DNA of 64,000 nt. Origin: Rickettsiales bacterium (GTDB lineage Bacteria; Pseudomonadota; Alphaproteobacteria; Methylaequorales; Methylaequoraceae). The DNA lies in assembly GCA_028407765.1 (NCBI GenBank), contig JAOOJU010000001.1:14838-78837 (forward strand), read 5' to 3'. The notes below the pieces were generated by a model. It saw only the letters and a list, made by a program, of their open reading frames with translations, made no database searches and was not told the DNA's origin. The position numbers were made by a program, and so were the translations under genes. Below, piece after piece: positions 2,159 through 53,234 of this stretch. Each line of letters opens with the position of its first letter. Position 1 is the first letter of the stretch.

Positions 2159-2166
2159 AATAAATT

Positions 2167-3465: not shown

Positions 3466-3547
3466 ACCTCTCTAGAGAACTTTTTTTCCCGCATGAGAAT
3501 GAAAAGAAAATAATGATAAGAAGAATAACCAATTTTTTATATTTCAT
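3425..3547 (-). CDS. Small lipoprotein (~40 aa) between argH and lysA, possibly LptM/YifL-like; not in ORF track (<60 aa)
   Basis: Hand translation gives MKYKKLVILLIIIFFSFSCGKKSSLERYEESDYPRSYPAN, with a lipobox-like FSC in signal-peptide context. Its ATG overlaps the argH stop (ATGA) and its TGA abuts the internal lysA ATG. Small lipoproteins sit in this argH-lysA position in many proteobacteria. Confidence 0.4.
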   Translation of the reverse strand: MKYKKLVILLIIIFFSFSCGKKSSLERYEESDYPRSYPAN

Positions 3548-4938: not shown

Positions 4939-4955
4939 AACTACAAAATTTTAAT

Positions 4956-31037: not shown

Positions 31038-31076
31038 GTCTTTTGAAAACAAAGTTTATCTCTAAAAGGATATATT

Positions 31077-32165: not shown

Positions 32166-32228
32166 AAAGTATTTTTTTTTATTAAAACTTTATATGGATA
32201 ATATAATTTAAATATGGTTTTTCATTAA

Positions 32229-34037
32229 ATGAGATTAAATCATTTGAAAGAAATTTGGAGTCTTCTACTTTTTAAAGAGAAGAGATCTTTTGTTTTTGTT
32301 ATTTTTCTTTCATTAATCCTTCCATTTGTTGAACTTTTTGGAATAGGTTCGGTTTTTGTTTTTGTAGATATAATTCTTAATCCTACAAATATTGAAAATT
32401 CAAAAATTATGTCAAAGTTAAATGAATTTTTAGAAATTAAAGATCAAAAAAAATTAATTACTATTCTTGGTTTTCTTGTAATTATATCGCTTATTATAAG
32501 AAATGTTTTTATTGCATTTAATTTATGGATGGTAACGAGTTTTTCCTTAAATGTGTCAGCTGGTTTGTCATCAAGATTATTAATTAGTTATTTAAAGTTT
32601 CCCTATCATTTTTTCATGGAAAATAATCATGCCGTTCTTCTAAAAAACATAAATACTGAAGCACAGTTGGTTGCTACGGGTTTCCTCATTCCATTACTTA
32701 AAATCTTATCTGGAAGTTTTGTATTTATTGTAATTTTCATAAGCCTACTTTTTTATAATTTCAATTCAACAATAATAATTTTCTCAACATTAGGAATTAT
32801 TTATTTTGTAGTTTATTATCTTTCAAAAAAGGTTTTTACGCAATATGGTAAAGAACGATTTGAATTAAATCAAAAAAGATTTGAATATACCTCACAATTA
32901 ATTAGTGGTATACAGGAAATAAAAGTCCTTGGTAGAGAAAATCTTTTTTATAAAAAATGTAAAAAAATTTTTTTCAAAATTGCAGCTCTTGCAATTAAAA
33001 CATCCATTGTTCCAAGATTGCCAAGGCTTGTAATGGAAATACTAATATTTGGCGGCATAGTATTGTTAACTTTATATAAGTTTTCTTATGATGCCAGTTC
33101 AATTGATCAATCAACGATAAGTTTGATTGCTTTATTTGGAATGTCCAGTTATAGATTAATGCCTTATTTGGACGGTTTATTTTTAGCTTTAACACAAATA
33201 AAATTAAATAGCACAGTAGTAGATGTAATGAAAAAACATCTAAAAGACCCTGAAAAAAATAGTTTATCTCCAGGAAAGAGAAATGTTATACCTTTAAAGA
33301 AAAGTGTATCACTGAATGGAGTTTTTTTTAAATATAGAAATAGGAAAAAATCTTCTTTAGAAAAACTTGACTTAGAAATAAAATATGGGAAATCCGTGGC
33401 ATTAGTTGGTCCTACAGGTTCTGGGAAGTCAACGATAATAAATCTCCTTTTAGGTCTTTATTTACCAGACAAAGGCACATTAAAAGTTGATCAAAAAAAG
33501 ATTGATAAATCTAATGTTCGTTCATGGCAAAAATCAATTGGTTTTGTTCCTCAAGAGATATATTTAAGCGATGAAATTGTAAAAAATAATATTGCATTTG
33601 GTATTCCTGATCATGAAATCGATATGGAAAGAGTTATTCAAACCTCAAAAATGGCAGGTATATATGATTTTATTTCAAATGAACTACCAGAAAAATTTAA
33701 TACATTAATTGGTGAAAGAGGTTCAAGAATTAGTGGAGGTCAAAAACAAAGAATCGGAATTGCCCGAGCATTATACCATGATCCCTCTTTTATTGTTTTT
33801 GATGAAGCTACAAGTTCATTGGATAATATAACAGAAAGATTAATCTCTGAAACAGTTTTCAAAACATTTAAGGATAAAACTATAATCATGGTGGCTCATA
33901 GAATTTCCACAATTAAAAATTGTGATTTAATTTATGTTATTAATAAGGGAGCAGTTGAAGCTAAGGGAAGCTATGACCAACTTCTAAAAAACAGCGATCT
34001 ATTTAAAAATATTGTGCTGGGGAAGAAAAAAATATAA
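32229..34037 (+). CDS. ABC exporter, fused permease/ATPase (MsbA/glycan-flippase type)
   Basis: Six N-terminal TM helices, Walker A GPTGSGKST, ABC signature LSGGQKQRIGIARAL and Walker B IVFDEATS. Confidence 0.8.
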   Translation: MRLNHLKEIWSLLLFKEKRSFVFVIFLSLILPFVELFGIGSVFVFVDIILNPTNIENSKIMSKLNEFLEIKDQKKLITILGFLVIISLIIRNVFIAFNLWMVTSFSLNVSAGLSSRLLISYLKFPYHFFMENNHAVLLKNINTEAQLVATGFLIPLLKILSGSFVFIVIFISLLFYNFNSTIIIFSTLGIIYFVVYYLSKKVFTQYGKERFELNQKRFEYTSQLISGIQEIKVLGRENLFYKKCKKIFFKIAALAIKTSIVPRLPRLVMEILIFGGIVLLTLYKFSYDASSIDQSTISLIALFGMSSYRLMPYLDGLFLALTQIKLNSTVVDVMKKHLKDPEKNSLSPGKRNVIPLKKSVSLNGVFFKYRNRKKSSLEKLDLEIKYGKSVALVGPTGSGKSTIINLLLGLYLPDKGTLKVDQKKIDKSNVRSWQKSIGFVPQEIYLSDEIVKNNIAFGIPDHEIDMERVIQTSKMAGIYDFISNELPEKFNTLIGERGSRISGGQKQRIGIARALYHDPSFIVFDEATSSLDNITERLISETVFKTFKDKTIIMVAHRISTIKNCDLIYVINKGAVEAKGSYDQLLKNSDLFKNIVLGKKKI

Positions 34038-34106
34038 ATTTTATTTTTTAATACAATTTCATTAAAATCATAAGATGATTTTTTATTAATAATAGTCAGA
34101 ATAGAT

Positions 34107-35039
34107 ATGTTAGTTAAATTTTTAAAATTATTTAAGAAAGATTTATTATTCCAAAAAATAGATCAAAAATTTAAGAGTCTATTTCCGGACACCTTTATTG
34201 GGCAACAGATATATTTTAATTTCTCAAAGATTTTTAATTATTACTCTTACAATAAGCGAAAAAGTATCTTTAAGAAAAAATTCTCTGATATTCCTGACGG
34301 CTTGAGTATTTTAGATTATGAGGGATATAAAATAAATAAATTAGGAGATGATTTTTCTAAAGAAATTTTAAAAAAAATAAATTTAAAAAAAATTATTGAC
34401 CCGAATTTAAATTTCAAGAAAGACTTCTTAAAAAACTACCCTATAGACATCTTATCAAAAGATTTTGCAGGGCTAAAAAAATTAGTTATTTCTCATGATT
34501 TTATAGCTCCTATCATAAATTATCTTGGATCAGTCCCTTTGTTGTGGACTTGTGAGGTATGGGTATCACCTAACAAGTCCTTTGAAACTGGTAGAAGTCA
34601 AGAATTTCACCTAGATGGAGAGGATATTAGACAAGTAAAATGTTTCATTCCTCTTGAAGATATCACAGAAGATTCTGGACCATTAAATATAATTAACGCA
34701 GAAAATACAAAAAATATCTTCAACAAACTTCAAAATGCTAAGAAAATAAATTTTAGACATCAAAAAGTTTCTGATGAAGATATGTATAAAGTAACCAGCA
34801 AGAAGAATACAGTTACCCTTTTAGCAAAAAAGGGAGATGTCATCATGTTGGATACCTCAAGGTGTTATCATTATGGTAGTCGTCCTGGTAAAAAAATAAG
34901 AAAGTTACTTTTTCTTCAATTTTTTTCAATTAATTCAAAAAAACTTTCTATTTTCCAAAATTTCCACAATAACAAATACAATAACATAGAAGGAAATATT
35001 TTCTTATTCCAGAAATTAAACCATAATACAACAAATTAA
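34107..35039 (+). CDS. Hypothetical protein, PhyH-like Fe(II)/2OG oxygenase candidate
   Basis: QEFHLDGED (HxD) and distal CYHYGSRP. The call is weak. Confidence 0.3.
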   Translation: MLVKFLKLFKKDLLFQKIDQKFKSLFPDTFIGQQIYFNFSKIFNYYSYNKRKSIFKKKFSDIPDGLSILDYEGYKINKLGDDFSKEILKKINLKKIIDPNLNFKKDFLKNYPIDILSKDFAGLKKLVISHDFIAPIINYLGSVPLLWTCEVWVSPNKSFETGRSQEFHLDGEDIRQVKCFIPLEDITEDSGPLNIINAENTKNIFNKLQNAKKINFRHQKVSDEDMYKVTSKKNTVTLLAKKGDVIMLDTSRCYHYGSRPGKKIRKLLFLQFFSINSKKLSIFQNFHNNKYNNIEGNIFLFQKLNHNTTN

Positions 35040-35280: not shown

Positions 35281-35799
35281 TTAATTATTCCGATGAATTT
35301 CTTTAACATACTTATCCTCAAAAAACTCACCTGATAACTTCCTTCCATCTGTATATAACAGTGTGCCGAGACCATTCCTTTTTCCGTCACTCCAGTCTCC
35401 CTCATAAATTACTCCGTCTGGATAAGTGTAAACTCCGTTACCATGTTTTTTACCATTTTGAAATTCTCCTTCATATTTAGAACCGTGAGCAAAACAGATA
35501 AATATTCCAATTCCGTGCTCTTTTCCGAACTTAAAGCCACCAGAATAAACAGCACCGTCTGAATAAGTCAAAGTTCCTTTCCCATGAGGCAAACCATCTT
35601 TAAATTCTCCTACATATGCTGTAAGATCTTTTGTGATAACCGCTCTACAATTATTCCATTTAGATGTTTGAGTTCCCTCACATTTCATAGATTTTGATTC
35701 TAAAAAATTATTTGAATTTAATAATACTAATATTAGTAAAGTTAATTTATACATCTGAAATTTTTCAATTTTTTTTATAGTTAATAATATTGTAGTCAC
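35281..35799 (-). CDS. Secreted MORN-repeat protein
   Basis: Signal peptide and repeated YxGxxxxGxxHGxG units (YVGEFKDGLPHGKG, YEGEFQNGKKHGNG, YEGDWSDGKRNGLG). Confidence 0.7.
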   Translation of the reverse strand: MTTILLTIKKIEKFQMYKLTLLILVLLNSNNFLESKSMKCEGTQTSKWNNCRAVITKDLTAYVGEFKDGLPHGKGTLTYSDGAVYSGGFKFGKEHGIGIFICFAHGSKYEGEFQNGKKHGNGVYTYPDGVIYEGDWSDGKRNGLGTLLYTDGRKLSGEFFEDKYVKEIHRNN

Positions 35800-36894: not shown

Positions 36895-37245
36895 TTGAAC
36901 TGGAGTAACTTTTTTGTGGAGGAAATTTTGAAAAACATACTTTTCGGAGTTGTTTGCTTGGCTTTATTTTCACTTTCTAATATTGCGTTAGGCGGGGATA
37001 TTACAGCCGGAGAAAAAAGATATGCACAAAATTGTGGTAACTGTCATGGACCAGCAGGTATGGGACTAGCTAGTTACCCTAAAATCTCCGGCAAAGAAGT
37101 CCCTTATCTTGTTGATAGATTAAAGACTTACAGAGCTGGAAAAAAGATTGGTCCAAATTCAAGTTTAATGATCATGATGGCAGGTGTGTTATCTGATGAC
37201 GAAATTTCAAATCTGGCTGCATACTTATCAAGTGTGCAAAATTAA
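36895..37245 (+). CDS. Class I c-type cytochrome (c551/c552-like)
   Basis: Single CGNCHG heme-binding motif (CxxCH), a distal Met region and a signal/TM segment. Confidence 0.75.
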   Translation: MNWSNFFVEEILKNILFGVVCLALFSLSNIALGGDITAGEKRYAQNCGNCHGPAGMGLASYPKISGKEVPYLVDRLKTYRAGKKIGPNSSLMIMMAGVLSDDEISNLAAYLSSVQN

Positions 37246-37276
37246 CTTTAACACAACTAAGGAGGATTAATATTTT

Positions 37277-38587
37277 ATGTCTATAAAATTGAAATCAAAA
37301 CTTTTGTCAGCAGTCGTAGTTTCGGCGGCGGCATTGTTCTCATCAGCTGCAAGTGCAGACACTATGGGAACTCCTAAAATTAGTGCGATGTCTATATTAA
37401 ATGGGTTAGAAAACCCATGGGATATGGCTTTTACAAGCGCTGGTGACATGTTTTATACTGAAAAATGTAAAGGTCTTTCAGTAAAAACTAAATCTGGTTC
37501 AGTTAATGCTTTAGCTGGCATGACAGGATCAAAAGGATATGCAAGTTCTAACGATGACCTTTTTTGTTCAGGTCAAGCTGGAATGATGGGTGTTGCATTA
37601 GACCCTAATTTCAAGAAAAATCGTAGAATTTATGTTGCTTCTACTTCTAATAAGTATCATGGAAGTGGTTGTAAAGACAATTTCTCAAAGTGTGATGGTA
37701 ACATCATTATGAGATTCGAAGTCAGCAAAGATATGAAAAGTGTATCAAATCGTACTGACATCGTAAAAGATATCCAGTATAAGCCATTTGAATCTGACCA
37801 TCCTTTCGGTGGACCAGGTGCACATAATGGTAACAGATTGCGTTTCGGTCCTGAGGGTTACCTTTGGGCTACAACTGGCGATCGTCACAGAGGTGTAGTG
37901 CCACAATCACCAAAACTATTAGGTGGTAATGTACTTCGTATCGATACAGATGGAAATGCACATCCAAAAAACAATCCTCCGCAGGGATTTGATAAGCGTA
38001 TGTATACTTACGGACATAGAAATGTTCAGGGTATTGACTTTCGTCCAAGTGACGGACAAGCGTTCACTGCAGAGCATGGACCATGGCAAAACGACGAAAT
38101 TACTGCATTAGTAAATGGCGGTAATGGTGGTTGGGATCCACGTCCAAATGTTGGTGGTCGTGGTGATTGTCCAGACAAGTATTGTGGTTACATGCCTAAT
38201 CAAAAAGAAGGTATGCTTCCAGCTGCTCGTGCTGCATTTATGCCAATGAGTGATACTCGTTTCAAGGACTTAATGCCGCCTGCATGGAACAACAGTGGTC
38301 TATCTCAAGGAACAGGTTCAGCTGCTTTCTTAAAAGGTGGCAACTGGGGTTACTATGAAGGCCGTATGGCTGTTGGAATCATGGGAATTGGTTTCGGTGG
38401 TACACCATCTGGAATGAGAATCGACCTCGTTGACCTTGCTGCAGACGGTAAATCAGTGAAGAGTGTTGTACACTTACCAACTGGTCTTACTAAAAGATTC
38501 AGAGGACTAAGACTTGGTCCAGACGGAGCTTTATATGCAGCTGTAGATGAAGGTGAAATCTACAAAATTACTGCAACTAAGCCGTAG
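37277..38587 (+). CDS. PQQ-dependent soluble sugar (glucose/sorbosone) dehydrogenase family beta-propeller
   Basis: Signal peptide. LENPWDMAFTSAGDMFYTEK and later GPEGYLWATTGD, GHRNVQGIDF motifs match the GSDH family. Confidence 0.7.
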   Translation: MSIKLKSKLLSAVVVSAAALFSSAASADTMGTPKISAMSILNGLENPWDMAFTSAGDMFYTEKCKGLSVKTKSGSVNALAGMTGSKGYASSNDDLFCSGQAGMMGVALDPNFKKNRRIYVASTSNKYHGSGCKDNFSKCDGNIIMRFEVSKDMKSVSNRTDIVKDIQYKPFESDHPFGGPGAHNGNRLRFGPEGYLWATTGDRHRGVVPQSPKLLGGNVLRIDTDGNAHPKNNPPQGFDKRMYTYGHRNVQGIDFRPSDGQAFTAEHGPWQNDEITALVNGGNGGWDPRPNVGGRGDCPDKYCGYMPNQKEGMLPAARAAFMPMSDTRFKDLMPPAWNNSGLSQGTGSAAFLKGGNWGYYEGRMAVGIMGIGFGGTPSGMRIDLVDLAADGKSVKSVVHLPTGLTKRFRGLRLGPDGALYAAVDEGEIYKITATKP

Positions 38588-38865: not shown

Positions 38866-38952
38866 GCCCCTATGGCGGAATTGGTAGACGCGACGGATTC
38901 AAAATCCGTTGAACTTCGGTTCATGTCCGTTCGAGTCGGACTAGGGGTACCA
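38866..38952 (+). tRNA. tRNA-Leu (anticodon CAA), with encoded CCA
   Basis: Cloverleaf readable by eye. Acceptor gccccta/taggggt with G1:U72. D-loop ggaattggtaga. Anticodon stem acgga/tccgt with loop ttCAAaa. Long variable arm gaacttcggttca. T-arm gtccg-ttcgagt-cggac, then CCA. Confidence 0.85.
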
Positions 38953-40059: not shown

Positions 40060-42054
40060 ATGAATGACATTAATTCAGTATTACAAAGAGAAAGAAAAAA
40101 ATATAAGATTCGATCTTTTTATTTCGTAGGTTTTGTTGGATGTATTTCAATCTTTATTTATTTTTTTTTACTTCTCTCAAATGGTACGAAAATAATTATT
40201 TTACCTGAAGAGGCAAGTATAAATGCAAAGGTAAAATCTGAGAATTTTTTAGATTTAAGTTTAAACAATTCTATTTATTCATTTTATTCCACACCTCTTT
40301 TTTCCTTATCTTCAAAGGGGTATAAAAAAATCAGCGAAACTATTCCACAAGAAAATAAAGGGAAATTTCATGAGGTTTTAATGACTGAACTTCCAGGCAT
40401 ATTAAATGTCAATATTAAAAAAAAAAATGAAAATACCCAATGGTTTTTAGATCAGAAATTTATCCATGAAGGGGAAAAATTAGAAACAAGCCTACCCGCA
40501 GGACAGTATGATTTAGAAGTTAATAACCCTTTTTTTGAAAAAAAAAATACATATGTCATTATTGAAAAAGGGGAAACTCACAACCTAGATTTAGAACTCA
40601 ATAATATTAACGGTTTTATAAAAATCGATTCAGAGCCAGCTAATGCAAGTGTATTCATTAACAAAAAAAAAATTGGACTCACCCCAATAATTTTTAAAGA
40701 TCAAGGTGGTAAGTACATAATTGAAGTTAAAAAAGAGAATTACAAAAAAATTAATGAAACAATAATTATTACAAATCAGAATAAAGTAAATCAAAGAAAC
40801 TATATCTTGGGGCTAATCGAGGCAAAACTAAAAGTCACTGCAAAACCAAGAGGAGGAAACTTAAATATTAATGGTTTGGTTTATCAAACAGATAAATTTA
40901 TTAATCTTAAATCTAATAAGGAATATGTTGTTTCATATGAAAAACCTGGCTTTAAAAAAAAATCGCTTAATTTAAATTTAAAACCTAATGAAGAAAGAAC
41001 TGAAACTATTAATTTGGAAGAAGAATATGGTATTGTTGAAATTATTTCTCAACCAGAAGCAGAAATTTGGATTAATGGAAAATTATCAGGCCAAACTCCC
41101 AAACTGATCGAGTTAAGAACTATTCAGCAGACTATTGAAGTTAGAAAAAAAAACTTCAGGTCTGTGACTAACAAAATTTTACCGAAAGCAGATAAAAAAA
41201 AAGTTTTAAATATTGATCTTATTGACGAAAAGGTAGCAAAATTGCAAGAGGCAAAATCCTCATACAATAATTCTATTAATATTGAAATGAAATTATTTAA
41301 TCCAAAAGGCGATATATTGCAATTAGGTGCTAAACGTCATGAAAAAGGTCAAAGAGCCAATGAAATTTTGCGAAAAGTTAATCTAACCAAACCTTTTTAT
41401 GTCTCTTTACATGAAGTATCCAACGAAAATTTTACCAATTTTAAAAAAAAGCAATTATCTAGAAATGGAAGTTTTCCTGTAAGCAACATCTCTTGGATCG
41501 AAGCTGCAGCTTTCTGCAATTGGTTAAGTAAAAAAGAAAAACTTGAAGAATTTTATGTCATTAAAGGTGGCAAATTAATTGATTTTAAAGGAAATTCCAA
41601 CGGATATAGATTGCTAACTGAGGCTGAATGGGAGTGGTTATCAAGAAAAGCAAATAAGAAAAAAGCCAGTAAATTTAGTTGGGGTGATAGCTTTATAATT
41701 CCAGACAATTATCTTAATATTGCCGATGAAAGTGCTCAGAGCAATCAAAGGAACTTTGTAAAAGATTATGATGATGGTTATGAAAATCTTGCAGAGATTG
41801 GTAGTTTCAATAGGGAAAGATCTGGGTTATATGATTTATCTGGTAATCTTAGTGAATGGGTTCATGATTATTATACAGTTACTTTCTCCGACAAAATAGA
41901 AAAAGATCCATTAGGTAAAAAAAAGGGATCAAGTCATGTAATCAAAGGTGCAAATTGGAGTTCAGGTACATTAACAAAAATTAGACCTAGTTATAGAGAA
42001 AATGGTATAAAGGGAAATGAAACAACTGGTTTTAGAATAGCAAGATATTTATGA
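40060..42054 (+). CDS. Membrane-anchored protein with three PEGA domains and a C-terminal FGE-sulfatase (SUMF1/formylglycine-generating-enzyme-like) domain
   Basis: N-terminal TM FYFVGFVGCISIFIYFFLLL. PEGA-like units IKIDSEPANASVFINKKKIGLTP, VTAKPRGGNLNINGLVYQ and IISQPEAEIWINGKLSGQTP. FGE-domain motifs NISWIEAAAFCNWLS, GYRLLTEAEWEW, YDLSGNLSEWVHD, VIKGANW and TGFRIARY. Confidence 0.65.
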   Translation: MNDINSVLQRERKKYKIRSFYFVGFVGCISIFIYFFLLLSNGTKIIILPEEASINAKVKSENFLDLSLNNSIYSFYSTPLFSLSSKGYKKISETIPQENKGKFHEVLMTELPGILNVNIKKKNENTQWFLDQKFIHEGEKLETSLPAGQYDLEVNNPFFEKKNTYVIIEKGETHNLDLELNNINGFIKIDSEPANASVFINKKKIGLTPIIFKDQGGKYIIEVKKENYKKINETIIITNQNKVNQRNYILGLIEAKLKVTAKPRGGNLNINGLVYQTDKFINLKSNKEYVVSYEKPGFKKKSLNLNLKPNEERTETINLEEEYGIVEIISQPEAEIWINGKLSGQTPKLIELRTIQQTIEVRKKNFRSVTNKILPKADKKKVLNIDLIDEKVAKLQEAKSSYNNSINIEMKLFNPKGDILQLGAKRHEKGQRANEILRKVNLTKPFYVSLHEVSNENFTNFKKKQLSRNGSFPVSNISWIEAAAFCNWLSKKEKLEEFYVIKGGKLIDFKGNSNGYRLLTEAEWEWLSRKANKKKASKFSWGDSFIIPDNYLNIADESAQSNQRNFVKDYDDGYENLAEIGSFNRERSGLYDLSGNLSEWVHDYYTVTFSDKIEKDPLGKKKGSSHVIKGANWSSGTLTKIRPSYRENGIKGNETTGFRIARYL

Positions 42055-42178
42055 ACTTAAAAAAAAAAAAAAAAATTTTTGTCATATTAATTTTTACATG
42101 TCTTATATGTTATAATATTATTGAGGCTGGTGGCCTGACTATTTCGTTAAATACTCCAATTTCTTTTCCAGTTGATAT

Positions 42179-42937
42179 TTGATGAATAATATACTCAAGA
42201 ACTCTCTATTTTTAATTTTTACAGTCATTATTGTACATTTTATTTTTTCTGGTTTTATAAGACCTGAAGCGAATTTGATAATTGAAACAGCTAAGAACAC
42301 ACAAACATCAGTACCTAGAAATTTCTATATTATTGTAAAAGACCTTGAACAGGAAATTTGTTTCATATTGTTAATTTGGGGAGTTTTTTTAATACTTCAA
42401 AAATGTCTTAAAATTATCAATTCAAACTATCTTTTTAATATTGACCTTATTGAAAGACAAATTGAAACTAAAAAAACGGCAGAAGAAGTTATAAGCAAAT
42501 TAAATAATCAGCTTGATAAAAATCTTCAAGAAACCCCTCTTATCGAATCCATAAATCTTGCATTACTTAGATACTCTCAAACAAAAAATGTTCAAAACGT
42601 GTCAGATTCTATTAAAAGTAGTATTGAAATGCTCTCAACGAAACAAGATAGTGATAACGCAATGATCAGATATTTAATATGGGCTATACCCTCTGTTGGT
42701 TTTATTGGAACTGTTAGAGGCATTGGATTAGCATTATCAAACGCTGATAAGGCAATTGCTGGTAATATTTCATTAATGACTGAAAATTTAGGAATAGCTT
42801 TTAATTCAACTTTTGTTGCATTGATCATTAGTTTAATTTTAATGCTTTTTTTCCATCAACTACAAAAGCTACAAGATGAAAATTTGGTTGATATTCAAGA
42901 ATATTGTGAAAAATATCTTTATTCTAAATTTATATAA
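42179..42937 (+). CDS. MotA/TolQ/ExbB-family proton-channel protein
   Basis: C-terminal consensus MIRYLIWAIPSVGFIGTVRGIGLALSNA and ISLMTENLGIAFNSTFVALIISLILMLFF, plus an N-terminal TM helix. Length is 252 aa. Confidence 0.7.
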   Translation: MMNNILKNSLFLIFTVIIVHFIFSGFIRPEANLIIETAKNTQTSVPRNFYIIVKDLEQEICFILLIWGVFLILQKCLKIINSNYLFNIDLIERQIETKKTAEEVISKLNNQLDKNLQETPLIESINLALLRYSQTKNVQNVSDSIKSSIEMLSTKQDSDNAMIRYLIWAIPSVGFIGTVRGIGLALSNADKAIAGNISLMTENLGIAFNSTFVALIISLILMLFFHQLQKLQDENLVDIQEYCEKYLYSKFI

Positions 42938-42940
42938 ATT

Positions 42941-44011
42941 ATGAAAAAAAAAAAACGTAACAATGATTTTAGCTTATCATTTTTAGACATTATGGCGTGC
43001 GGTTTAGGTGGAGTAATAATAATTTTTTTATTATTAGAAAATAAACCTACTTTCAAAATTAATAAATCCAATACTAATAATGAAATATTAATAGAGCAAA
43101 TTGAAAGCCTTACTAGTTCTAATCAAGAACTAAGTATTGCTAATCAACAATTAGAGTCAGATATAGAAAATGAAAAAAATAAAATATCCGTTATTAATAA
43201 GCAAAATGTAAATTTAGAGAAAACAATTGAAAATGCTAATAAAAACATTCAAGAAGTCAATACAGAAGTCTCTCAACTGAAGGAAAAAATATCAAAAATG
43301 CCGCAGCAAATGATCGAAGATCCTATTTCAAATGATGAATTGTTTGAGGAAAATTATATTGAGGGTCTCACAATAGTAGGGAAAAAAATTTGTATATTAC
43401 TTGATTCTAGTTCATCAATGACCGATGAAAAATTATTAGAAATTATTAAAAGGAAAAATCTATCTAACGAAGAAAAAAAAAAGGGTCCAAAGTGGAAGAG
43501 AAGTTTAGATATTGTAAAGTGGATTTTAGCTAGAGCACCCAAAGACAGTGATATTGCTGTAATACGATTCAATGAAACAGCAAAATATATTGCCAAACAA
43601 TCCTTCCAAACCAAAAATAAGAATGATTTAAAAACAGTTTTTTTAGGTTTAAATAATATAACCCCTGACGGGCCCACAAATTTATTATCTGCTTTAATAC
43701 AAGCGGCAAAATTTAATCCAACCAATATTTATCTAATAACAGATGGATTACCAACTTTTGGTGGAGAAAGATTCAAAAGTTTGAATCCATTTAATAAATG
43801 TGATTCCATTATTGGTTCCTCAAATAAAATATCTGGTGATTGTAGAGTAAAATTATTTAATCAAAGTATAAGATATGTTAGCAATAATGGAGCACAAATA
43901 GATATAATTCTTCTACCCGTTGAGGGTGATCCCCAAGCCTCACCTGAGATGTGGAAATGGGCCTCTGACACAGGTGGTATATTAATCAGCCCAGCGAGAA
44001 GTTGGCCATAA
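42941..44011 (+). CDS. Single-pass membrane protein: TolR/ExbD-like TM helix with Asp, ~100-residue coiled coil, C-terminal vWA (MIDAS) domain
   Basis: N-terminus KKRNNDFSLSFLDIMACGLGGVIIIFLLL. An N/E/K/Q-rich heptad region follows. MIDAS DxSxS is KICILLDSSSSMTDEK, with downstream T and D (ITPDGPTNL..LITDGLP). Its start is 4 nt after the MotA-like stop. Confidence 0.55.
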   Translation: MKKKKRNNDFSLSFLDIMACGLGGVIIIFLLLENKPTFKINKSNTNNEILIEQIESLTSSNQELSIANQQLESDIENEKNKISVINKQNVNLEKTIENANKNIQEVNTEVSQLKEKISKMPQQMIEDPISNDELFEENYIEGLTIVGKKICILLDSSSSMTDEKLLEIIKRKNLSNEEKKKGPKWKRSLDIVKWILARAPKDSDIAVIRFNETAKYIAKQSFQTKNKNDLKTVFLGLNNITPDGPTNLLSALIQAAKFNPTNIYLITDGLPTFGGERFKSLNPFNKCDSIIGSSNKISGDCRVKLFNQSIRYVSNNGAQIDIILLPVEGDPQASPEMWKWASDTGGILISPARSWP

Positions 44012-44946
44012 TGAAGAAAAAAAGGGATTTAGAAAATACACTTTTTTCATTCTTAGATGTAATATCTTGTGGGTTTGGGGCTATTGTGATGTTGGTGTTA
44101 ATTTACAAATTTAATCCCAGTGAAAATATTGAGAATTCTGATGAAGATAATGAGAGTTACATTTTAAAAATTAATGAGTTACAAGAAATTAATGATCAAT
44201 TAAAGAAAACAAAAGAACAATTAAATAATAAGGTTTTAGAAATTAATAAAAAATTTTTAGAAGTTAAAAATTCTATACAAAATAAACAAAATTCACTTAC
44301 ATCAATTGAAGAAAAAAAAAAAAATCTAAAAGATTCAGCTGAAGCATTAAAACTAGTTGAGAATAATCTCAAATCCTTTTCACTGAAAAAGAAAAAGGAA
44401 ATTGTAAGGGATATTGAAGTTGGTGGAATTCCTGTCGATAGCGACTATGTCATTTTTATAGTTGATACATCTGGAAGTATGTTGACTATCTGGGATAAAG
44501 TTTCTAGCAAAATTGAAAATATTTTAAAGATTCATCCAAATGTCAAGGGTTTTCAAATATTGAATGATATGGGAGTTCCGCTCATTTCTGGTTATAAAAA
44601 TAAATGGATACCAGATACACCAACTTGGCGTAAAAATTCATTAAAATTGTTCAAAATGTGGGTTATTGCCTCAAACAGTAGTCCTCTAGAAGGTATTGAA
44701 TGGGCACTTATAAAATATTCAGATCCTAAAAAGTCTGTGGCAATTTATGTCATGGGGGACGATTATACAGGCGGAGATTATGACATAGCAATTAATAAAA
44801 TAACAAATTTAAATAAAAAAAAAAAATTCAAAACAAGGATTCATGCCATTGGTTTTCTTGCTCAAGATACAACAGATAGATTTTCAATTATTATGCGTGA
44901 GATAACGAAACAAAACAACGGAACCTTTATCGCTTTACCCAGATAA
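44002..44946 (+). CDS. Paralog of the preceding gene: TolR/ExbD-like TM with Asp, coiled coil, vWA (MIDAS) domain
   Basis: N-terminus KKKRDLENTLFSFLDVISCGFGAIVMLVLIY. A coiled coil follows. MIDAS is YVIFIVDTSGSM. It overlaps the previous gene by 10 nt. Confidence 0.55.
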   Translation: MAIMKKKRDLENTLFSFLDVISCGFGAIVMLVLIYKFNPSENIENSDEDNESYILKINELQEINDQLKKTKEQLNNKVLEINKKFLEVKNSIQNKQNSLTSIEEKKKNLKDSAEALKLVENNLKSFSLKKKKEIVRDIEVGGIPVDSDYVIFIVDTSGSMLTIWDKVSSKIENILKIHPNVKGFQILNDMGVPLISGYKNKWIPDTPTWRKNSLKLFKMWVIASNSSPLEGIEWALIKYSDPKKSVAIYVMGDDYTGGDYDIAINKITNLNKKKKFKTRIHAIGFLAQDTTDRFSIIMREITKQNNGTFIALPR

Positions 44947-44950
44947 TTTT

Positions 44951-46576
44951 TTATATCTTTTCTAAGCAAATAACCTTCAATTGAACAGGCTCATTTTCTG
45001 TCAAATTGACATCTAAAAAAATATCTCTGAAACCTTTTTTTTTTCCTATAAAATAGTATTTTCCTGGAGGAAGCTGAATAATTTTTTCTTCAACTTTCCC
45101 AACTTTACCAATACCTCTGATTTCTATTAGAGTTTCGTTGTCCGAAAAAATTTTTACATTAATTTTTGTTTCAGATTTTTTAATAACATCAGAGACCTCA
45201 AGATAATTTTTAAAAAGTGATGGACTAATATCCAAGTATTTTTTTGATCTTTTAAGATCACTAAGAACCTTGTTCTTAAATTTTTGATTAGTTAATCTGT
45301 GCAAGTTTTTGGAATAACTTCTTAAACTTTTTTTTAAAGATAAAATTTCTTCTGTCATTTCAATTTTTTCTCTAATAAAAGCGTCATTACTTTCTATAGT
45401 TTCAATTTTCTTGAGATTGAGTAATGAAGTTTCCCAATCATCATTACTGGAAGCAATATTAAAATTAGAAAGTAAATCTTTTTTTATTTTTTCTTCTTTA
45501 AGTTTATCTAATTTGTCTTCAAATAAATTTATCTCAGGTCTATTTGGCAAAATTATCTTTGCTTTTATTAAGAAGTTTTCTGCATCTTTAATATTTCCAT
45601 CTTTAAAAAACTTTTCTGCTTTATTAATTTTCTTTGCAAATTCTGTTTCAGCTATTGTGAGACTCAAATTTTTTATTTCATCATCTAATTTAGGGTTCTT
45701 TTCTATTTGACTGAGCTTTTGCATTAAAAGTAATTCTTTTTTTTTATTATTCTCGTTTCGGGCAGTTTCTAAATTTTCAAGGATTTGAATTTTTTCTGGA
45801 AGCACTTTTATCTTGGTTCTTAACTTTTTTGCTTCTGGGGCATTAGGTTTTAATTTGAGAGCATTTTTGATGTTTTCATATGCTTTTAAATATGATAAAT
45901 CACTGTAGAATGATTTTGCATTTGAAAAAAAATTATTAAAATCCTCTTCAAGTTTCTTGTTAGTTTTTTTAATTTCAATTTCAGTGTTATCAATTTTTTT
46001 TATAGCATCAATAAAGTTTCCTTTATTTTTGATTACAATAATCTCTTTTCTCATGTTCTCAATCTTTTCAATATTTTGTTGAAAATAATTAAAATTCCAA
46101 ATAAATAATGAATCATAAAAAAATTTTTCAAGTTCAATTTTCTTGTTTAGAAAAACTTCTTTTGCATTTTTTAAATTAATATTCTCAGTTTTATTAGAAA
46201 AACTTTCCAAGTTATCTTTAATTGTATTTCTTTTATTTGTGATAATATTACTCTCAAAATTTTGACAATTAAATTCTGTAAAATCGTTGTTGATTGTTGA
46301 TGTTATTTTCTTATTTTTAAAATCAATAAATTCAATTTTATTATTATCCTCAGTTACATAAGTAAGATTTAAATCGTCAGAAGAAGTGAATTGCTGGCAC
46401 TTTTCTTGGTTGGAAGAATTTATCATACAAATATTATTTTTGGTTTTTGTATATTTGGTTAGTTTATTCGCTCCATCTATACATTCCATTGTTAGCTCAT
46501 AATTATTTGCTTTAGAAAAAATTTTATTACTAATTAAAGAAATAAGTATAAAAAAGATTATTTTGTGGAATTTCAT
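44951..46576 (-). CDS. Secreted coiled-coil/TPR-like repeat protein with C-terminal PEGA-like beta domain
   Basis: Signal peptide MKFHKIIFFILISLISNKIFSKA and a long K/E/N-rich helical region with TPR-like units (AYENIKNALKLKPNAPEAKKL; FFKDGNIKDAENFLIKAKIILPNRPE). The C-terminus is ...IQLPPGKYYFIGKKKGFRDIFLDV. It is convergent, 4 nt from the vWA gene stop. Confidence 0.4.
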   Translation of the reverse strand: MKFHKIIFFILISLISNKIFSKANNYELTMECIDGANKLTKYTKTKNNICMINSSNQEKCQQFTSSDDLNLTYVTEDNNKIEFIDFKNKKITSTINNDFTEFNCQNFESNIITNKRNTIKDNLESFSNKTENINLKNAKEVFLNKKIELEKFFYDSLFIWNFNYFQQNIEKIENMRKEIIVIKNKGNFIDAIKKIDNTEIEIKKTNKKLEEDFNNFFSNAKSFYSDLSYLKAYENIKNALKLKPNAPEAKKLRTKIKVLPEKIQILENLETARNENNKKKELLLMQKLSQIEKNPKLDDEIKNLSLTIAETEFAKKINKAEKFFKDGNIKDAENFLIKAKIILPNRPEINLFEDKLDKLKEEKIKKDLLSNFNIASSNDDWETSLLNLKKIETIESNDAFIREKIEMTEEILSLKKSLRSYSKNLHRLTNQKFKNKVLSDLKRSKKYLDISPSLFKNYLEVSDVIKKSETKINVKIFSDNETLIEIRGIGKVGKVEEKIIQLPPGKYYFIGKKKGFRDIFLDVNLTENEPVQLKVICLEKI

Positions 46577-46606: not shown

Positions 46607-47830
46607 TTAGATAGTGGCTGGAATTTCGACCTCAGGAGTTTTTTCTTTTTCATATATTTTTTTTAAAAACACTCTCCATTGAGAAAATTGTTCTTTAGCT
46701 GTCCCTGTCAATTCTACAGTATCATTATTTAATTCTATTACTTTAGATGTCATTTCAACTTCTATAGATTGACCAAGTTCATTAATTGCGTCTCTATGAA
46801 CTTTAGCTTCTTCACTCTTCTTAAAACTATCTTGTAAAAGTGATGCCCCAGCCATTCCTCCACTAACAGCGCCCAATGTACCTAAAGCTTGGCTACCAGC
46901 ATCACCAGAATTTGCACCAGCTACAGCAGCAAGTACTGCTGCACCAAGCAATAAAATTCCACCAATTGCTTTACCTACTGCTTCACCCTTGGCTTTACTT
47001 TCGGCTTGTTTTTCCTGAAATGACTGTTGCTGCCATGTTAAATAACTTGTATCGATATTTTCGTCAAAATTCATATAAAAAACTTGTAATTCGTCAATAA
47101 ATAATTGATCTCGAACTCTTAAATTTGATAATCTAAGATATTTTGGATCAGAACTATCAAGCTTTGCTTTAATTATATATTTTCCATCTTCATTTTTATC
47201 AATATTTTCTGAAAAAGATTCTTCAGAGAGATTCATACCGAATCTTAAATCACTGATGTATTTTAAATCATCAAGGTTATTGGTAGAAACAAATTGAAGC
47301 TTTTCTTCGATTTTTTTCGCGATTTTCTGAAAAACTGGGTCATAAGAATCTTGGTTATATCCTCCTTTAGTGTAGAAATCTTCTGGCACTTGGTGTTCAA
47401 AATCGTCATTAATCCATAAGTTACCAGAGATGTCTGCCACTTTAATGTCTAATTCAACTTCTTCACTGTTTGATTCCATAATTTTTCCTGAGATATATAA
47501 ATCACTTGTTGCGTTCAGGTCAGGAACAACTCTGACAGCCCCAAATTTGTCTAACTTTTCAATATATAGTTTAAGTTTATATGCGAATCTAATTGATTCA
47601 GCTTTTCTTAATTCTGTCCAAACATCTTCGTTGTTGGATTTAGGAATATTTGGATCAAATACAGCTATTGCAACATCTAGTCTTGGTCTGGAATCATCAG
47701 CAAAATCTTGAACTTTTTCTTCCTCAAGAATTTGATTTGAAGTTTTTGGACCAAAGTCCATTAACGACTGTGTAGTTTTACAACTAGAAATAAAAAAAAC
47801 TATTAATATAACTAATGAAGTAAGTCTCAT
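46607..47830 (-). CDS. Lipoprotein with C-terminal glycine-zipper membrane segment
   Basis: Lipobox LVILIVFFISSC, an acidic central domain and a Gly-zipper AIGGILLLGAAVLAAVAGANSGDAGSQALGTLGAVSGGMAGASLL. Confidence 0.4.
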   Translation of the reverse strand: MRLTSLVILIVFFISSCKTTQSLMDFGPKTSNQILEEEKVQDFADDSRPRLDVAIAVFDPNIPKSNNEDVWTELRKAESIRFAYKLKLYIEKLDKFGAVRVVPDLNATSDLYISGKIMESNSEEVELDIKVADISGNLWINDDFEHQVPEDFYTKGGYNQDSYDPVFQKIAKKIEEKLQFVSTNNLDDLKYISDLRFGMNLSEESFSENIDKNEDGKYIIKAKLDSSDPKYLRLSNLRVRDQLFIDELQVFYMNFDENIDTSYLTWQQQSFQEKQAESKAKGEAVGKAIGGILLLGAAVLAAVAGANSGDAGSQALGTLGAVSGGMAGASLLQDSFKKSEEAKVHRDAINELGQSIEVEMTSKVIELNNDTVELTGTAKEQFSQWRVFLKKIYEKEKTPEVEIPATI

Positions 47831-47874: not shown

Positions 47875-48420
47875 TCAATCTTCAAGCGGTAAATTTTTAT
47901 ATTTTCTATACTCATTCCAAATCTTTTTTTGCTTTTCGGGGTCACTTTCTTTAAGTGCAGCATTCTTTATTTGTTGAGCTAAAACATCATCATTGTCATC
48001 AAAAGGAATATCTTCAGGAATTTTTCCATTTGACCCTGAATTATTTTTATTAATAGAACCTGCGAGTTCATTTTCAGTGTTTTGATTTTGTTCATTGTAT
48101 GACTCAGTTGATTCTTGATCTGCGCTAAGTTTATTGCCTCTTAATTCTTGGGATCTATCCGATGCATTTTCTATACTATCGTCAACATTATTTTGCCTTG
48201 CTGATGTTTTTGCTTTTATACACTCTTCAAATCTATCCAAGGACTCGAGTAAAGCGTCATCCATCGCCTGAATCTGCTCTCTGTCTGTTAAATATTCATT
48301 TTCTTTATAGTTTACATCAAAATTATCGCACTCATCATTAAATGTTTCAGAGTAAGAAGCTTTTCCCATGACAAAAATAACAATAAGAAGTAGATGACTT
48401 AAAAAAAATTTGTACAACAT
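47875..48420 (-). CDS. Secreted acidic hypothetical protein
   Basis: Signal peptide and a D/E/N/Q-rich body. Confidence 0.3.
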   Translation of the reverse strand: MLYKFFLSHLLLIVIFVMGKASYSETFNDECDNFDVNYKENEYLTDREQIQAMDDALLESLDRFEECIKAKTSARQNNVDDSIENASDRSQELRGNKLSADQESTESYNEQNQNTENELAGSINKNNSGSNGKIPEDIPFDDNDDVLAQQIKNAALKESDPEKQKKIWNEYRKYKNLPLED

Positions 48421-49188: not shown

Positions 49189-50538
49189 TTAGTTCAAAAG
49201 TATTGTTTTTAAATATTCACCAACAATTTTATTACCTGTAAAACTTAGGTGACCGCCAGTATCTCCACCTCGAAAAGCAAATAATTTTTTTAAATCTTTA
49301 TTTTCCTTAAAGATTTCTCCTAGATCATAATATTTTATTTGTTGGCTTGTAATAATTTTTCTTACTTTTAAATCATTTTTAGAAATTGTTTTGATGTCTT
49401 TTTCATGTGGTAAATTAATGAAAATCAGTTCAGCATTAATTCTATCTGAAAATCTTTTTGCTTTTGAAATAATTTGTTCGAATCTTCCAAAATCAATTTC
49501 ATCAGATTCCTTAGATTTGTTAAATCTTAGGTTTACTTTGTTTCTTATACTCTTTAAGAATAGTCTATCCTTTGAGAAAAAAATTTCATTTATTGATCTC
49601 AATTTTTTTTCAGTATCTGGTTTCTTAAGTAACTTATTAAAATAAAAATCACTTAATAAAGACTCAATCTCTTTTTTTTTTTGAAATAGATTTTGTGAAT
49701 AATCATCAAGCAAATAATTATCAAATTTTTTTATCTTTTTGTAATAGTTTATTCCATCACTAAGATCATTACCTCCATAATGAACCCAAATAATTTTTTT
49801 TGGTTTTATTTCAGCAGCGTATTCTTTAATAATACCAAGATTTATAATTGGTCCATTTCCTGAAATTCCTAAATTTAATGCATTAACACCGACTTTTCTG
49901 AAAATATTTATAAAATGATTATTATTTGGAAGACAGCAACCTTCAGTAAAAGAGTCACCTACAAACAAATACTCAATTTTTTCATCCCAATATTCATCTA
50001 AGTTATTAAATCCATGCCTATCAGTTAAAAATTTGTGATGTTTACCGTATTCATTCTTACTTACAATTACTGTGTTTGGAGAATATGCCAGGGGAGTTAA
50101 ACCTATGTTTTCTTTAAAAACTCTAAAAGCAGGATGAGCCTTTCCATCACTTTGATTTATATCTTCTGCTACTTGTCTTTTTGTTCTAACATCATAATCA
50201 TAATCGAATGCTAACGAGTTTGCGAAAATAGCATATCTTTTATATGTGGCATAGTACTCAAATATTAAAATTGGAAAAGTAAAAGATCCAATTAATATCA
50301 AAGTATATGACGAACTGAATATTTTTTTTTTTTGATTCCAAATTAATAAAATACTCACAAAAAGTGTAATAGATAATATTATTAAAAGTTGGAATATATA
50401 GTTTTCTGCAAAATTTTCTTTATTTAAAAAATTAAAATTTAAACCTAAAATTCTATAACACAAAAAAAATGAAAGTATTAGCAAGGAAAATATTATAAGT
50501 CTAATTAATACTCTTGATAGTTTCTCAATTAAACTCAT
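49189..50538 (-). CDS. Polytopic membrane protein with C-terminal SGNH/GDSL-type hydrolase-like domain (polysaccharide O-acyl modification candidate)
   Basis: Four N-terminal TM helices. The GDS(x)nG block is YLFVGDSFTEGCC. Later motifs are GISGNGP and WVHYGGNDL (GxND). Confidence 0.45.
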   Translation of the reverse strand: MSLIEKLSRVLIRLIIFSLLILSFFLCYRILGLNFNFLNKENFAENYIFQLLIILSITLFVSILLIWNQKKKIFSSSYTLILIGSFTFPILIFEYYATYKRYAIFANSLAFDYDYDVRTKRQVAEDINQSDGKAHPAFRVFKENIGLTPLAYSPNTVIVSKNEYGKHHKFLTDRHGFNNLDEYWDEKIEYLFVGDSFTEGCCLPNNNHFINIFRKVGVNALNLGISGNGPIINLGIIKEYAAEIKPKKIIWVHYGGNDLSDGINYYKKIKKFDNYLLDDYSQNLFQKKKEIESLLSDFYFNKLLKKPDTEKKLRSINEIFFSKDRLFLKSIRNKVNLRFNKSKESDEIDFGRFEQIISKAKRFSDRINAELIFINLPHEKDIKTISKNDLKVRKIITSQQIKYYDLGEIFKENKDLKKLFAFRGGDTGGHLSFTGNKIVGEYLKTILLN

Positions 50539-50760
50539 GGGTAATGTATATTCATAAAATTAAGTAAAGTCTACTAATTCTAATTTTCTTCAAAAAATTA
50601 TACACTTGGGTAAGAAAAATCTAATAAAAAAAGTTAAAAAAGTTTTTCGAGATTTAACATTCATAGGGATATTTTTAGAGATTTTGAAAAAAAACATTGA
50701 TACAAGACATTGAAATAAGCAATGAAAGTCAATGTAATAAAGGGTTTTAGACCCAAAGCA

Positions 50761-50819
50761 ACTGATTCAAAATCTGTTAAACTTCGGTTCATGTCCGTTC
50801 GAGTCGGGCTAGGGGTACT
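50761..50819 (+). repeat. Direct repeat: second partial copy of the tRNA-Leu 3' portion (~5 mismatches)
   Basis: actgattcaaaatctgttaaacttcggttcatgtccgttcgagtcgggctaggggtact. Confidence 0.75.
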
Positions 50820-50988
50820 AATTAATGAAAAGTTAGATTGATTGTGATTTAATCTAAATCACTAATAAAGGTAAGGTTGAGGAGAAAAGTAATTATAATT
50901 AACTTTTAAAGACTAATATTTATCCAAAAAATATTGTTCTTGCGAACTAAAAGAATTAATCTAAAACTATATTTAGAGAAGTATTCTT

Positions 50989-52872: not shown

Positions 52873-52926
52873 TTTTCTATTATTTTTAAATATGAAAAAT
52901 ACTTATGGTTTAAATATTTATTTTAA

Positions 52927-53012
52927 GCCCTAATAACTGAATTGGAGTACACGACGGATTCAAAATCCGTTAAACTTCGGTTCATGTCCGCTCGTGTTGG
53001 ATTAGGAGTACA
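52927..53012 (+). pseudogene. Degenerate near-full-length tRNA-Leu-like copy (pseudo-tRNA); T-stem and acceptor pairing disrupted
   Basis: gccctaataactgaattggagtacacgacggattcaaaatccgttaaacttcggttcatgtccgctcgtgttggattaggagtaca aligns along the whole tRNA-Leu. However gtccg/tggat cannot form a T-stem. Confidence 0.65.
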
Positions 53013-53234
53013 ATCTAAATACTAAAAAATTTCTATAATTTCAGTAAATTGAACTTTATAAAATTAGATAATTTTGCTTAAATTTAAATATAACAAAAAT
53101 ATTATTATGATTGAGATTGATGTATCTTATAGTTGTGTGATAATTCAAATGTTTTTATTGAAAAACTATAATTCTATCGATTGTTCTTAATTTTAATAAT
53201 TATAGTTTTTAACTTTTCTTAAAAAGGATACAAT

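Follow-up and report, generated by a model that had tools for sequence, protein, structure and literature searches.

Flagella, nutrient import, envelope integrity, gliding, secretion and phage defence all run on ion-driven motors of the 5:2 type, and with every output that came to be understood a new field has opened. The locus described here lies in a 64,000-nucleotide (nt) stretch of contig JAOOJU010000001.1 from the Rickettsiales bacterium assembly GCA_028407765.1 (hereafter the window, meaning the whole stretch that was analysed). It includes a gene for a MotA/TolQ/ExbB-fold protein (E) and two genes for transmembrane (TM) proteins bearing von Willebrand factor A (vWA) domains (F and G), which belong to an eight-gene cassette, A, B, C, D, X, E, F, G. 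The cassette probably codes for an envelope machine of eight proteins, self-contained and inherited with the chromosome, that is powered by proton-motive force (PMF).

The closest described systems are clusters predicted in silico, with Idiomarina loihiensis as the exemplar, in which tolQ homologues lie beside TM-tethered vWA proteins, mostly "in heterologous pairs", and are not accompanied by tolR or exbD (PMC12204202, Fig. 4c-d; Mol Biol Evol 2025;42:msaf138). These clusters were found in Proteobacteria and Verrucomicrobia, and AlphaFold 3 (AF3) models of them place a TolR/ExbD-like trans-pore helix, with a conserved Asp, inside a ring of Thr residues, in an analysis that favours a rotating vWA dimer (PMC12204202). 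Genes E, F and G of the window share every feature of that description: a tolQ/MotA gene adjoins a heterologous pair of TM-tethered vWA proteins, tolR, exbD and motB are absent, the helix Asp is conserved and the SHLS motif missing, the pore has a Thr ring, and the hosts are mainly Proteobacteria. The original prediction, which was limited to D, E, F and G, had put the machine forward as a candidate undescribed one; for the core motor this no longer holds, as it was already predicted in 2025. However, PMC12204202 covers the tolQ gene and the vWA pair only, and PEGA domains, an FGE/sulfatase domain, a lipoprotein, the TPR protein of the family and a micro-protein are unmentioned there. A literature search likewise found no paper that joins MotA/TolQ/ExbB with vWA and FGE/PEGA, the first two being covered by PMC12204202, and the full cassette and X appear undescribed. 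Beyond the published core, the probable remainder of the machine consists of a secreted protein, an outer-membrane-type lipoprotein, a TPR scaffold, a micro-protein and an FGE/PEGA protein that is PorK-like.

The motor subunit E

In fold and pore motifs, E (42182-42937, + strand, 251 aa) agrees with the subunit that forms the pentamer of 5:2 motors (TolQ/ExbB/MotA/ZorA). It scores 47.6 bits with Pfam MotA_ExbB (PF01618), whose cutoff is 22.9 (E 1.8e-12, over positions 17-124 of the 127 in the profile), bearing out the family placement made in the original prediction, and its predicted fold is that of a MotA/TolQ/ExbB subunit, structurally nearest TolQ and ExbB. AIPS, GFIGTVRGIG and AFNST, the motifs of the pore helices, hardly vary; among 51 sequences, S171, G176-T177-V178 and N208-S209-T210 do not vary and P170 is retained in at least 90 %. 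Through the common GTVxGI motif, the Thr residues of E may correspond to T145 and T178 of TolQ, and hydrophobicity suggests four TM segments, as in MotA, instead of three. Between the window and homologues from Nitrosomonadaceae, Desulfobacterota, Mariprofundus and Methylophaga, E retains ~55 % identity. Its start is most likely the ATG at 42182, which gives 251 aa as in all homologues, in preference to the TTG at 42179 chosen by the ORF tool.

E shares with MotAB and PomAB the Pfam family and fold, the apparent four-TM topology and the presence of an Asp on the partner helix. However, the cassette contains neither a MotB plug nor an OmpA domain, E lacks the large cytoplasmic domain that interacts with FliG, and the NCBIfam models of MotA give E 14-16 bits against cutoffs above 300.

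The vWA proteins F and G

F (42941-44011, + strand, 356 aa) and G (44002-44946, + strand, 314 aa from the TTG at 44002 or 311 aa from the ATG at 44011) are the two trans-pore-helix proteins of the cassette. Each has a K/R-rich N-terminus, a TM helix with an Asp (Asp16 in F, Asp19 in G), a coiled coil, ~100 aa long in F, and a vWA domain, which is divergent in G. The original prediction had described the two as paralogues in which a TM Asp is followed not by a TolR/ExbD/OmpA domain but by a coiled coil and a vWA domain; this architecture was recovered, and the motifs quoted for it, including FLDIMACGLGG, FLDVISCGFG and DxSxS, are all present. Matches to a vWA profile had been expected for both genes. 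F passes the VWA_2 cutoff (27.7 bits against 27.0, E 4.4e-6), whereas G stays below threshold (0.0098), yet G is a paralogue of F by hhalign (99.5 %, E 6e-23, 240 columns over the TM helix, coiled coil and vWA core). In the PDB, the best match of F has an E of 0.0019 and the remainder are mostly coiled-coil noise.

The metal-ion-dependent adhesion site (MIDAS) of F, formed by D155, S157, S159, T246 and D268, is complete in 87/87 sequences. In G the DxSxS part (D155, S157, S159) is conserved in 86/86, the position of the Thr is taken by an invariant SNSSPxEG loop, and GDD is conserved. F also carries a pair of cysteines, Cys287 and Cys301, that is invariant in the subfamily of the window and which, together with the basic N-termini, fits a topology with the N-terminus inside and the vWA domain in the periplasm. 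The trans-pore helix, FSLSFLDIMACGLGGVIIIFLLL, contains no His and no SHLS.

The TM Asp was predicted to be conserved, and it is found in every homologue: D19 in 86/86 G sequences, and D16 in 87/87 F sequences once the starts are corrected. The residue was seen directly in all 66 F reading frames that reach this column, and the 21 others apparently began at Met18. In those 21 loci (L004-L006, L013-L018, L020-L022, L028, L034, L046, L048, L049, L066, L072, L073, L081) there is no ATG, GTG or TTG upstream of Met18; the upstream frame instead reads ...RRKTEGFNxAFLDIM from a CTG that lies downstream of a Shine-Dalgarno-like AGTAGG or AGGAGG. Since this CTG-start frame encodes the Asp, F has it in 87 of 87 loci, and public gene calls such as P0051 and P0094 (337 aa) are truncated. 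Such truncation is a systematic annotation error that strips the key Asp from database entries of F.

At E <= 1e-30, 298 clusters (50 % identity) make up the F family, in which the full-length matches share one uniform architecture of ~340-370 aa, and F of the window is ~41-44 % identical to its homologues in Nitrosomonadaceae, Desulfobacterota, Mariprofundus and Methylophaga. Even in relatives of just 26-33 % identity, F-L-D is still invariant. Most of these distant relatives (P0425-P0513) lack a ~14-residue insertion in the vWA domain that bears Cys287, and most of them lack Cys301, so that the subfamily of the window differs from them by an extra Cys-pair insertion. They keep most of the MIDAS (D155, S159 and T246 in at least 90 %) and the C-terminal DWP, which suggests a wider superfamily with sub-types.

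F and G are ~20 % identical, and the spacing between the TM Asp and the MIDAS Asp is matched between them. It is 135 residues in 68/86 F sequences and 134-138 residues in 85/86 G sequences, and the two agree within +/-2 residues in 73/86 loci. This match fits a single parallel, in-register F/G stalk, the length of which would be ~12-15 nm. Covariation of stalk length between F and G was also considered and set aside: the lengths are matched and barely vary (r = 0.23), which speaks of constraint and is no proof of covariation.

A pore dimer of two different proteins has a precedent in AglRQS of Myxococcus gliding, in which a MotA/TolQ-like subunit is combined with two different small Asp partners. 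However, AglQ and AglS are short, TolR-like and devoid of a coiled coil or vWA domain, and the Glt partners of that system are unrelated to A-D and X.

TM-anchored vWA proteins are also known from Bat aerotolerance operons, and ExbD and MotB profiles miss the helices of F and G, so the two might build a vWA membrane complex that is static, Bat-like or otherwise, with no motor and with E as its scaffold or a passive channel. This is very unlikely: neither a MoxR ATPase nor DUF58 lies in or near any locus, and a membrane-buried Asp that is absolutely conserved in both paralogues (173/173), taken with the Thr/Pro pore motifs in E, would be difficult to account for if no ions were coupled. A Bat-type operon as such was rejected because neither a MoxR AAA+ ATPase nor DUF58 occurs in the cassette of the window or in the gene tables of L001-L006. 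None of the three outcomes that would have refuted the original prediction came about; in particular, the locus proved to be neither a Bat operon nor a canonical Tol/Ton locus.

The eight-gene cassette

The four tightly packed, co-directional + strand reading frames of the original prediction (40060-42054, 664 aa; 42179-42937, 252 aa; 42941-44011, 356 aa; 44002-44946, 314 aa) were confirmed in their coordinates and short junctions. They are not a four-gene unit, however, and make up half of the eight-gene cassette. On the contigs of the homologues from Nitrosomonadaceae, Desulfobacterota, Mariprofundus and Methylophaga, D-E-F-G always come after three co-directional genes of ~200, 415 and 475-490 aa without a Pfam match. 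In the window, the orthologues of these three genes lie on the minus strand beyond G, and the cassette extends to 48420. They were identified by BLASTP to orthologues in L001 and L004 as C (44951-46576, a TPR-repeat protein of 541 aa; 4e-30), B (46607-47830, a lipoprotein of 407 aa; to 7e-115, 45 % identity) and A (47875-48420, a small secreted protein of 181 aa; 8e-31).

The recurrence that was proposed as a check is borne out by a neighbourhood survey of 86 loci, in which the collinear order A-B-C-D-(X)-E-F-G occurs in 55 and D-E-F-G followed by inverted C-B-A in five. The five inverted loci all fall within the window's own clade, and nearly all the remaining loci end at contig edges. The collinear loci come from no fewer than five bacterial classes, and collinear and inverted loci together span Alpha-, Beta-, Gamma- and Zetaproteobacteria, Desulfobacterota and Myxococcota. 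E, F and G are neighbours in 82/82 loci that hold all three genes, and in the window as well; A was found in 60/60 complete loci.

Junctions overlap or are very short throughout the cassette, the exception being D-E with a median gap of 140 nt. In the window, the stop codon of D and the ATG of X overlap in TTATGA, the TGA of X and the ATG of E (42182) in TGATG, and E and F are 3 nt apart. F and G overlap by 10 nt; G may instead start at the ATG at 44011, in which case the junction is TAATG. In the window's clade, the two halves D-X-E-F-G (+) and C-B-A (-) are convergent, with stop codons 4 nt apart, and no terminator-like hairpin was found between the stops of G and C (44946-44951). With the break falling between C and D, the cassette may be made up of two sub-operons. 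In locus L086, from a Methylomonas metagenome-assembled genome, the 7 kb upstream of D (1-7056) hold UvrB-like, aconitase-like and other genes and no A-B-C. The contig ends right after G; A-B-C are either missing or located farther downstream, which is the arrangement in the window's clade.

None of the eight cassette products is an ATPase or a cytoplasmic effector, and A, B, C, D and X are all exported or anchored in the membrane. With all eight products membrane-bound or exported and no ATPase among them, the PMF acting through E would be the only evident energy source. One protein, P0342 (628 aa), in which A and B are fused, was examined as a Rosetta-stone link and discarded: the internal signal peptide and lipobox of B are retained and the fusion occurs on a single 3.4-kb contig. 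This read-through from A to B is probably a sequencing or gene-calling artefact.

Micro-protein X

Alignment of the D-E spacers revealed a 3' block that is conserved across phyla with a 3-nt periodicity, corresponding to a small gene, X. In the window, X (42051-42182, + strand) encodes a micro-protein of 43 aa, MNLKKKKKIFVILIFTCLICYNIIEAGGLTISLNTPISFPVDI, and it appears in the list of open reading frames. It is present in 84/85 loci that contain E, the sole exception being truncated at a contig edge. Its last 13 residues follow the pattern I-S-L-N-S-P-x-S-F-P-V-D-I, in which L-11, F-5, P-4, D-2 and I-1 are invariant in 84/84, and the entropies at the three codon positions (0.51/0.21/1.37) show the pattern of purifying selection on a protein. 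A poly(A) run of 17 nt, reported earlier as lying between D and E, was recovered at its full length at 42059-42075 (+ strand). It is not intergenic: it lies inside X and encodes Lys4-Lys8 and the first base of Ile9.

In X, a basic N-terminus leads to a hydrophobic core that is ~20 aa long, and an AxA-like end, in many cases VYA, AYA or AQA, falls 3-8 residues short of the tail. It looks like either a micro-protein held by a signal anchor or a Sec signal peptide from which a peptide of ~15-20 aa is released. Searches of Pfam and NCBIfam gave no family for it, the Magnetovibrio homologue is deposited as the "hypothetical protein" WP_170826984.1, and the window's copy is absent from a collection of 15 billion proteins. 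With its 43-55 aa, X is overlooked by most gene callers, a systematic annotation error. Two other readings of the spacer were dropped once it proved to be coding: a regulatory RNA, for which Rfam was empty, and a promoter or terminator, since such sites are no commoner than in shuffled sequences.

The partner proteins A, B, C and D

D (40060-42054, + strand, 664 aa) is a bitopic inner-membrane protein with its N-terminus inside, anchored by an N-terminal TM helix and devoid of a lipobox. A conserved, short, basic and amphipathic cytoplasmic N-terminus precedes the TM helix, and the long periplasmic part consists of three PEGA domains, one weak CarboxypepD_reg-like stretch and a C-terminal FGE head. 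The two Pfam families anticipated for this gene both match, FGE-sulfatase (PF03781) at 1.9e-30 and PEGA over three stretches at 9.3e-26. Relatives in the PDB are Treponema denticola TvpA (2y3c), true FGEs, and PorK/GldK (9ots/9mzu; E ~3e-8).

The catalytic Cys pair of FGE, Cys336 and Cys341 in the human enzyme, lies between the GxxW and GFR motifs. In D, a Cys between these motifs is absent in 75/76 sequences, and the lack of the catalytic pair indicates that the head is a binding domain and not an enzyme. A catalytic FGE/SUMF1 role for D was rejected for this reason, while its membership of the PF03781 fold family is itself supported.

The head of D resembles that of PorK, which is likewise FGE-like without the FGE catalytic cysteines. 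In the type IX secretion system (T9SS), moreover, GldLM/PorLM form a 5:2-type motor whose dimeric subunit reaches far into the periplasm toward an FGE-fold protein. The echo of GldK/PorK with GldLM that was noted in the original prediction is therefore a reasonable analogy, but it does not extend to membership: D scores 65.3 bits on the GldK model TIGR03525, far under the cutoff of 350, and is TM-anchored instead of being a lipoprotein. In addition, the cassette encodes no homologues of GldL, GldM or GldN, and its hosts are Proteobacteria and Desulfobacterota, not Bacteroidota.

C contains TPR repeats: 14/27 members match TPR_2 (best 2.9e-10), and a profile of C matches consensus TPR structures at 1.6e-8. 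The C protein of most lineages begins with a cytoplasmic amphipathic helix and a TM anchor, and it ends in a beta-domain whose likeness to PEGA is weakly supported (Pfam 0.024; hhalign 4.9 %). In the window's clade, a signal-peptide-like N-terminus and a Cys-rich segment of ~100 aa, which make up the N-terminal ~130 aa, replace the helix and TM anchor.

With its lipobox at Cys16, B combines an alpha/beta domain and a long helix with a hydrophobic segment of glycine-zipper type (~285-336) and, at the C-terminus, a small conserved domain, and its fold is that of PelC/CsgG/TolB-N/FlgT-like lipoproteins. Under the sorting rule of the Lol pathway, a lipoprotein without Asp at position +2 is targeted to the outer membrane; the lipobox Cys of B is invariant and no Asp stands at +2. 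No sequence relative of B was found in the PDB, and glycine-zipper proteins resembling B are sometimes labelled SlyB by JGI.

A consists of a signal peptide, an invariant Cys pair, a disordered middle part rich in acidic residues and Ser, and a conserved C-terminal motif of acidic and aromatic residues (NGKIPxDIPxxDNDxxLAAQIRxAAxxExDPxxxxxLWNEYRKYKGL). It matches no Pfam family.

The proposed machine

In the probable PMF-driven machine, five E subunits would surround one F-G heterodimer (E5:F1G1), and protons would be bound and given up by the Asp residues of F and G. Their flow through the Asp/Thr site would turn the E pentamer relative to F-G, whose coiled coil of ~100 residues (~12-15 nm) would span the periplasm and bear both vWA heads. 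The metal-ion sites of these heads could then grip an acidic ligand on a partner from the cassette. Work would thereby be passed to a periplasmic and outer-membrane assembly of D, with its PEGA stalk and non-catalytic PorK-like FGE head, C as the TPR scaffold, and B, A and X, in which B would be an outer-membrane-type and probably ring-forming lipoprotein. The output would most likely be an energised process of the outer membrane or cell surface, by analogy with Tol-Pal, Ton and the PorLM-PorKN part of the T9SS. Speculatively, the MIDAS ligand could be supplied by the C-terminus of X (...VDI-COOH) or of A, both of which are acidic and invariant.

Several points weigh against this proposal. We infer the 5:2 stoichiometry, the F-G heterodimer and the insertion of the helices into the pore, and the outer-membrane location and ring formation of B are drawn from fold similarity and the missing Asp at +2. 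Neither the single sequence nor a profile of E has a significant sequence relative in the PDB, and for want of a match to a solved motor subunit the assignment of E relies on Pfam, predicted fold and motifs. The N-terminal 50 aa of F and G match no ExbD, TolR or MotB profile even at E <= 10, and the PF02472 ExbD match that the original prediction held possible there did not materialise. Moreover, the comparison of E-F-G with the clusters of PMC12204202 was made from the description in that paper.

Full-length F and G, too, match no ExbD (PF02472), MotB_plug or OmpA profile, and no TolR, ExbD or MotB gene lies beside E-F-G in ~85 loci. With neither profile nor gene found, the likeness of F and G to TolR/ExbD is one of architecture and motif, not of family membership. 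With Tol-Pal and Ton, the cassette has in common the Asp-helix dimer expected in the pore and an output expected in the periplasm or outer membrane; with Tol-Pal in particular it shares the presence of a TPR protein (compare CpoB) and of the TolB-N-like fold of B. However, it lacks the periplasmic domain of ExbD/TolR, an SHLS helix of the TolA/TonB type, Pal, the TolB beta-propeller and a TonB-dependent transporter, and its dimer would pair two distinct proteins that both carry a coiled coil and a vWA domain.

The mechanics may also be the opposite, F-G being stationary, with vWA heads anchored to a fixed structure of the periplasm or outer membrane (compare the peptidoglycan-binding domains of MotB/ZorB), while the E pentamer rotates and pulls along TM helices of C and/or D that dock on its rim, in the manner of TolA/TonB. 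Force would then be transmitted by C and D, and the vWA heads would serve as anchors. This arrangement draws on the bitopic topology of D, and of C in most lineages, which is that of TolA/TonB, on the translational coupling of D, X and E, on the structural proximity of E to TolQ and ExbB, and on the fold of B, which is shared by ring-forming outer-membrane lipoproteins and could supply an anchor. We nevertheless regard it as unlikely. The TM helices of C and D have no conserved SHLS/His-type motif or other conserved polar residue, C of the window's clade has a signal-peptide-like N-terminus instead of a cytoplasmic helix and TM anchor, and the published AF3 work prefers a rotating, GldM-like vWA dimer (PMC12204202).

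A bolder form of the proposal, which we put forward tentatively and hold to be possible, is that the eight genes constitute a complete new class of PMF-driven trans-envelope machine. Its output would be none of the flagellar, Ton, Tol-Pal, gliding/T9SS or Zorya type. A shaft formed by the vWA heterodimer would be turned by, or would anchor, the TolQ-like pentamer and engage an outer-membrane lipoprotein assembly, and X would be an acidic MIDAS ligand or an extra motor subunit.

Distribution and genomic neighbourhood

A species-level scan, with one genome per species, found relatives of the cassette in at least 576 genomes, so the family is common, and it is highly conserved even in the streamlined marine alphaproteobacterium of the window, with its GC content of 28 %. 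Cultured hosts include Aestuariispira insulae, Magnetovibrio blakemorei, Denitrobaculum tricleocarpae and Methylophaga sulfidovorans, and the motor now has a defined parts list, cultured hosts and testable contacts. The cassette occurs in every close relative fetched (L007-L012), and no copies were found on 72,556 plasmids or 50,697 phages. It is flanked by housekeeping genes that differ by lineage; no recurrent neighbour was found beside it beyond single lineages, and synteny around it is partial between the window and its closest relatives. Across the region the GC content is ~0.27-0.29 without a shift, and ARAGORN detects a single tRNA-Leu (38866-38952) in the whole window. The original prediction had placed the genes on a tRNA-flanked accessory islet. 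There is no tRNA on the other side, and the uniform GC content, the occurrence in all close relatives and the lack of plasmid or phage copies lend no support to an accessory islet.

A niche role in defence had been offered as one candidate function, and a Zorya-like anti-phage system, in which the MotA-like motor senses a perturbation of the envelope, would suit a region of the window rich in hypothetical and surface-glycan genes. Such a role is scarcely credible. PADLOC returns coiled-coil noise only for F and G and nothing for E, the cassette encodes no nuclease, helicase or other cytoplasmic effector, and every product is exported or membrane-bound. Mobile copies and a recurrent neighbour are lacking, the housekeeping flanks are lineage-specific, and the fixed gene order, with E ~55 % identical across classes in at least 576 species, is unlike the pattern of patchy defence islands. 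Compared with Zorya itself, E (251 aa) is without the long tail of ZorA, and the cassette has no ZorB peptidoglycan-binding domain and no ZorC, ZorD or ZorE.

In the window, the flanks of the cassette (30066-35039 and 49189-54074) encode an NAD-dependent epimerase/dehydratase, an FkbM methyltransferase, an ABC exporter, a GDSL-like protein, an asparagine synthase and a further methyltransferase. The region has the look of a locus for cell-surface polysaccharide, and this glycan neighbourhood is lineage-specific.

Such neighbours of the cassette could point to the export, anchoring or movement of a surface polymer or adhesin, with the vWA heads and a lectin-like FGE/PEGA protein handling the cargo. 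B resembles PelC and CsgG of outer-membrane export systems, C offers a TPR scaffold as in systems of the PelB/BcsC/AlgK type, and FGE-fold domains are C-type-lectin-like. A vWA adhesin, CglB, is reported to work with the Agl motor in Myxococcus gliding (PMC9946355). We consider this function quite unlikely, however, given that a glycosyltransferase, synthase, porin or secretin is neither part of the cassette nor recurrent beside it, that the glycan-gene surroundings are specific to the window's lineage, that the vWA domains are tethered to the inner membrane and not exposed at the surface, and that the hosts include streamlined planktonic bacteria.

Two further features lie in the window upstream of D. 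A gene for a small cytochrome c (116 aa) stands directly upstream of one for a soluble glucose/sorbosone dehydrogenase (GSDH; 2e-50) with a signal peptide (together 36895-38587), and the two plausibly form a periplasmic pair of dehydrogenase and electron acceptor. In addition, a MORN-repeat protein of 172 aa (7.9e-30) is encoded at 35281-35799 on the minus strand.

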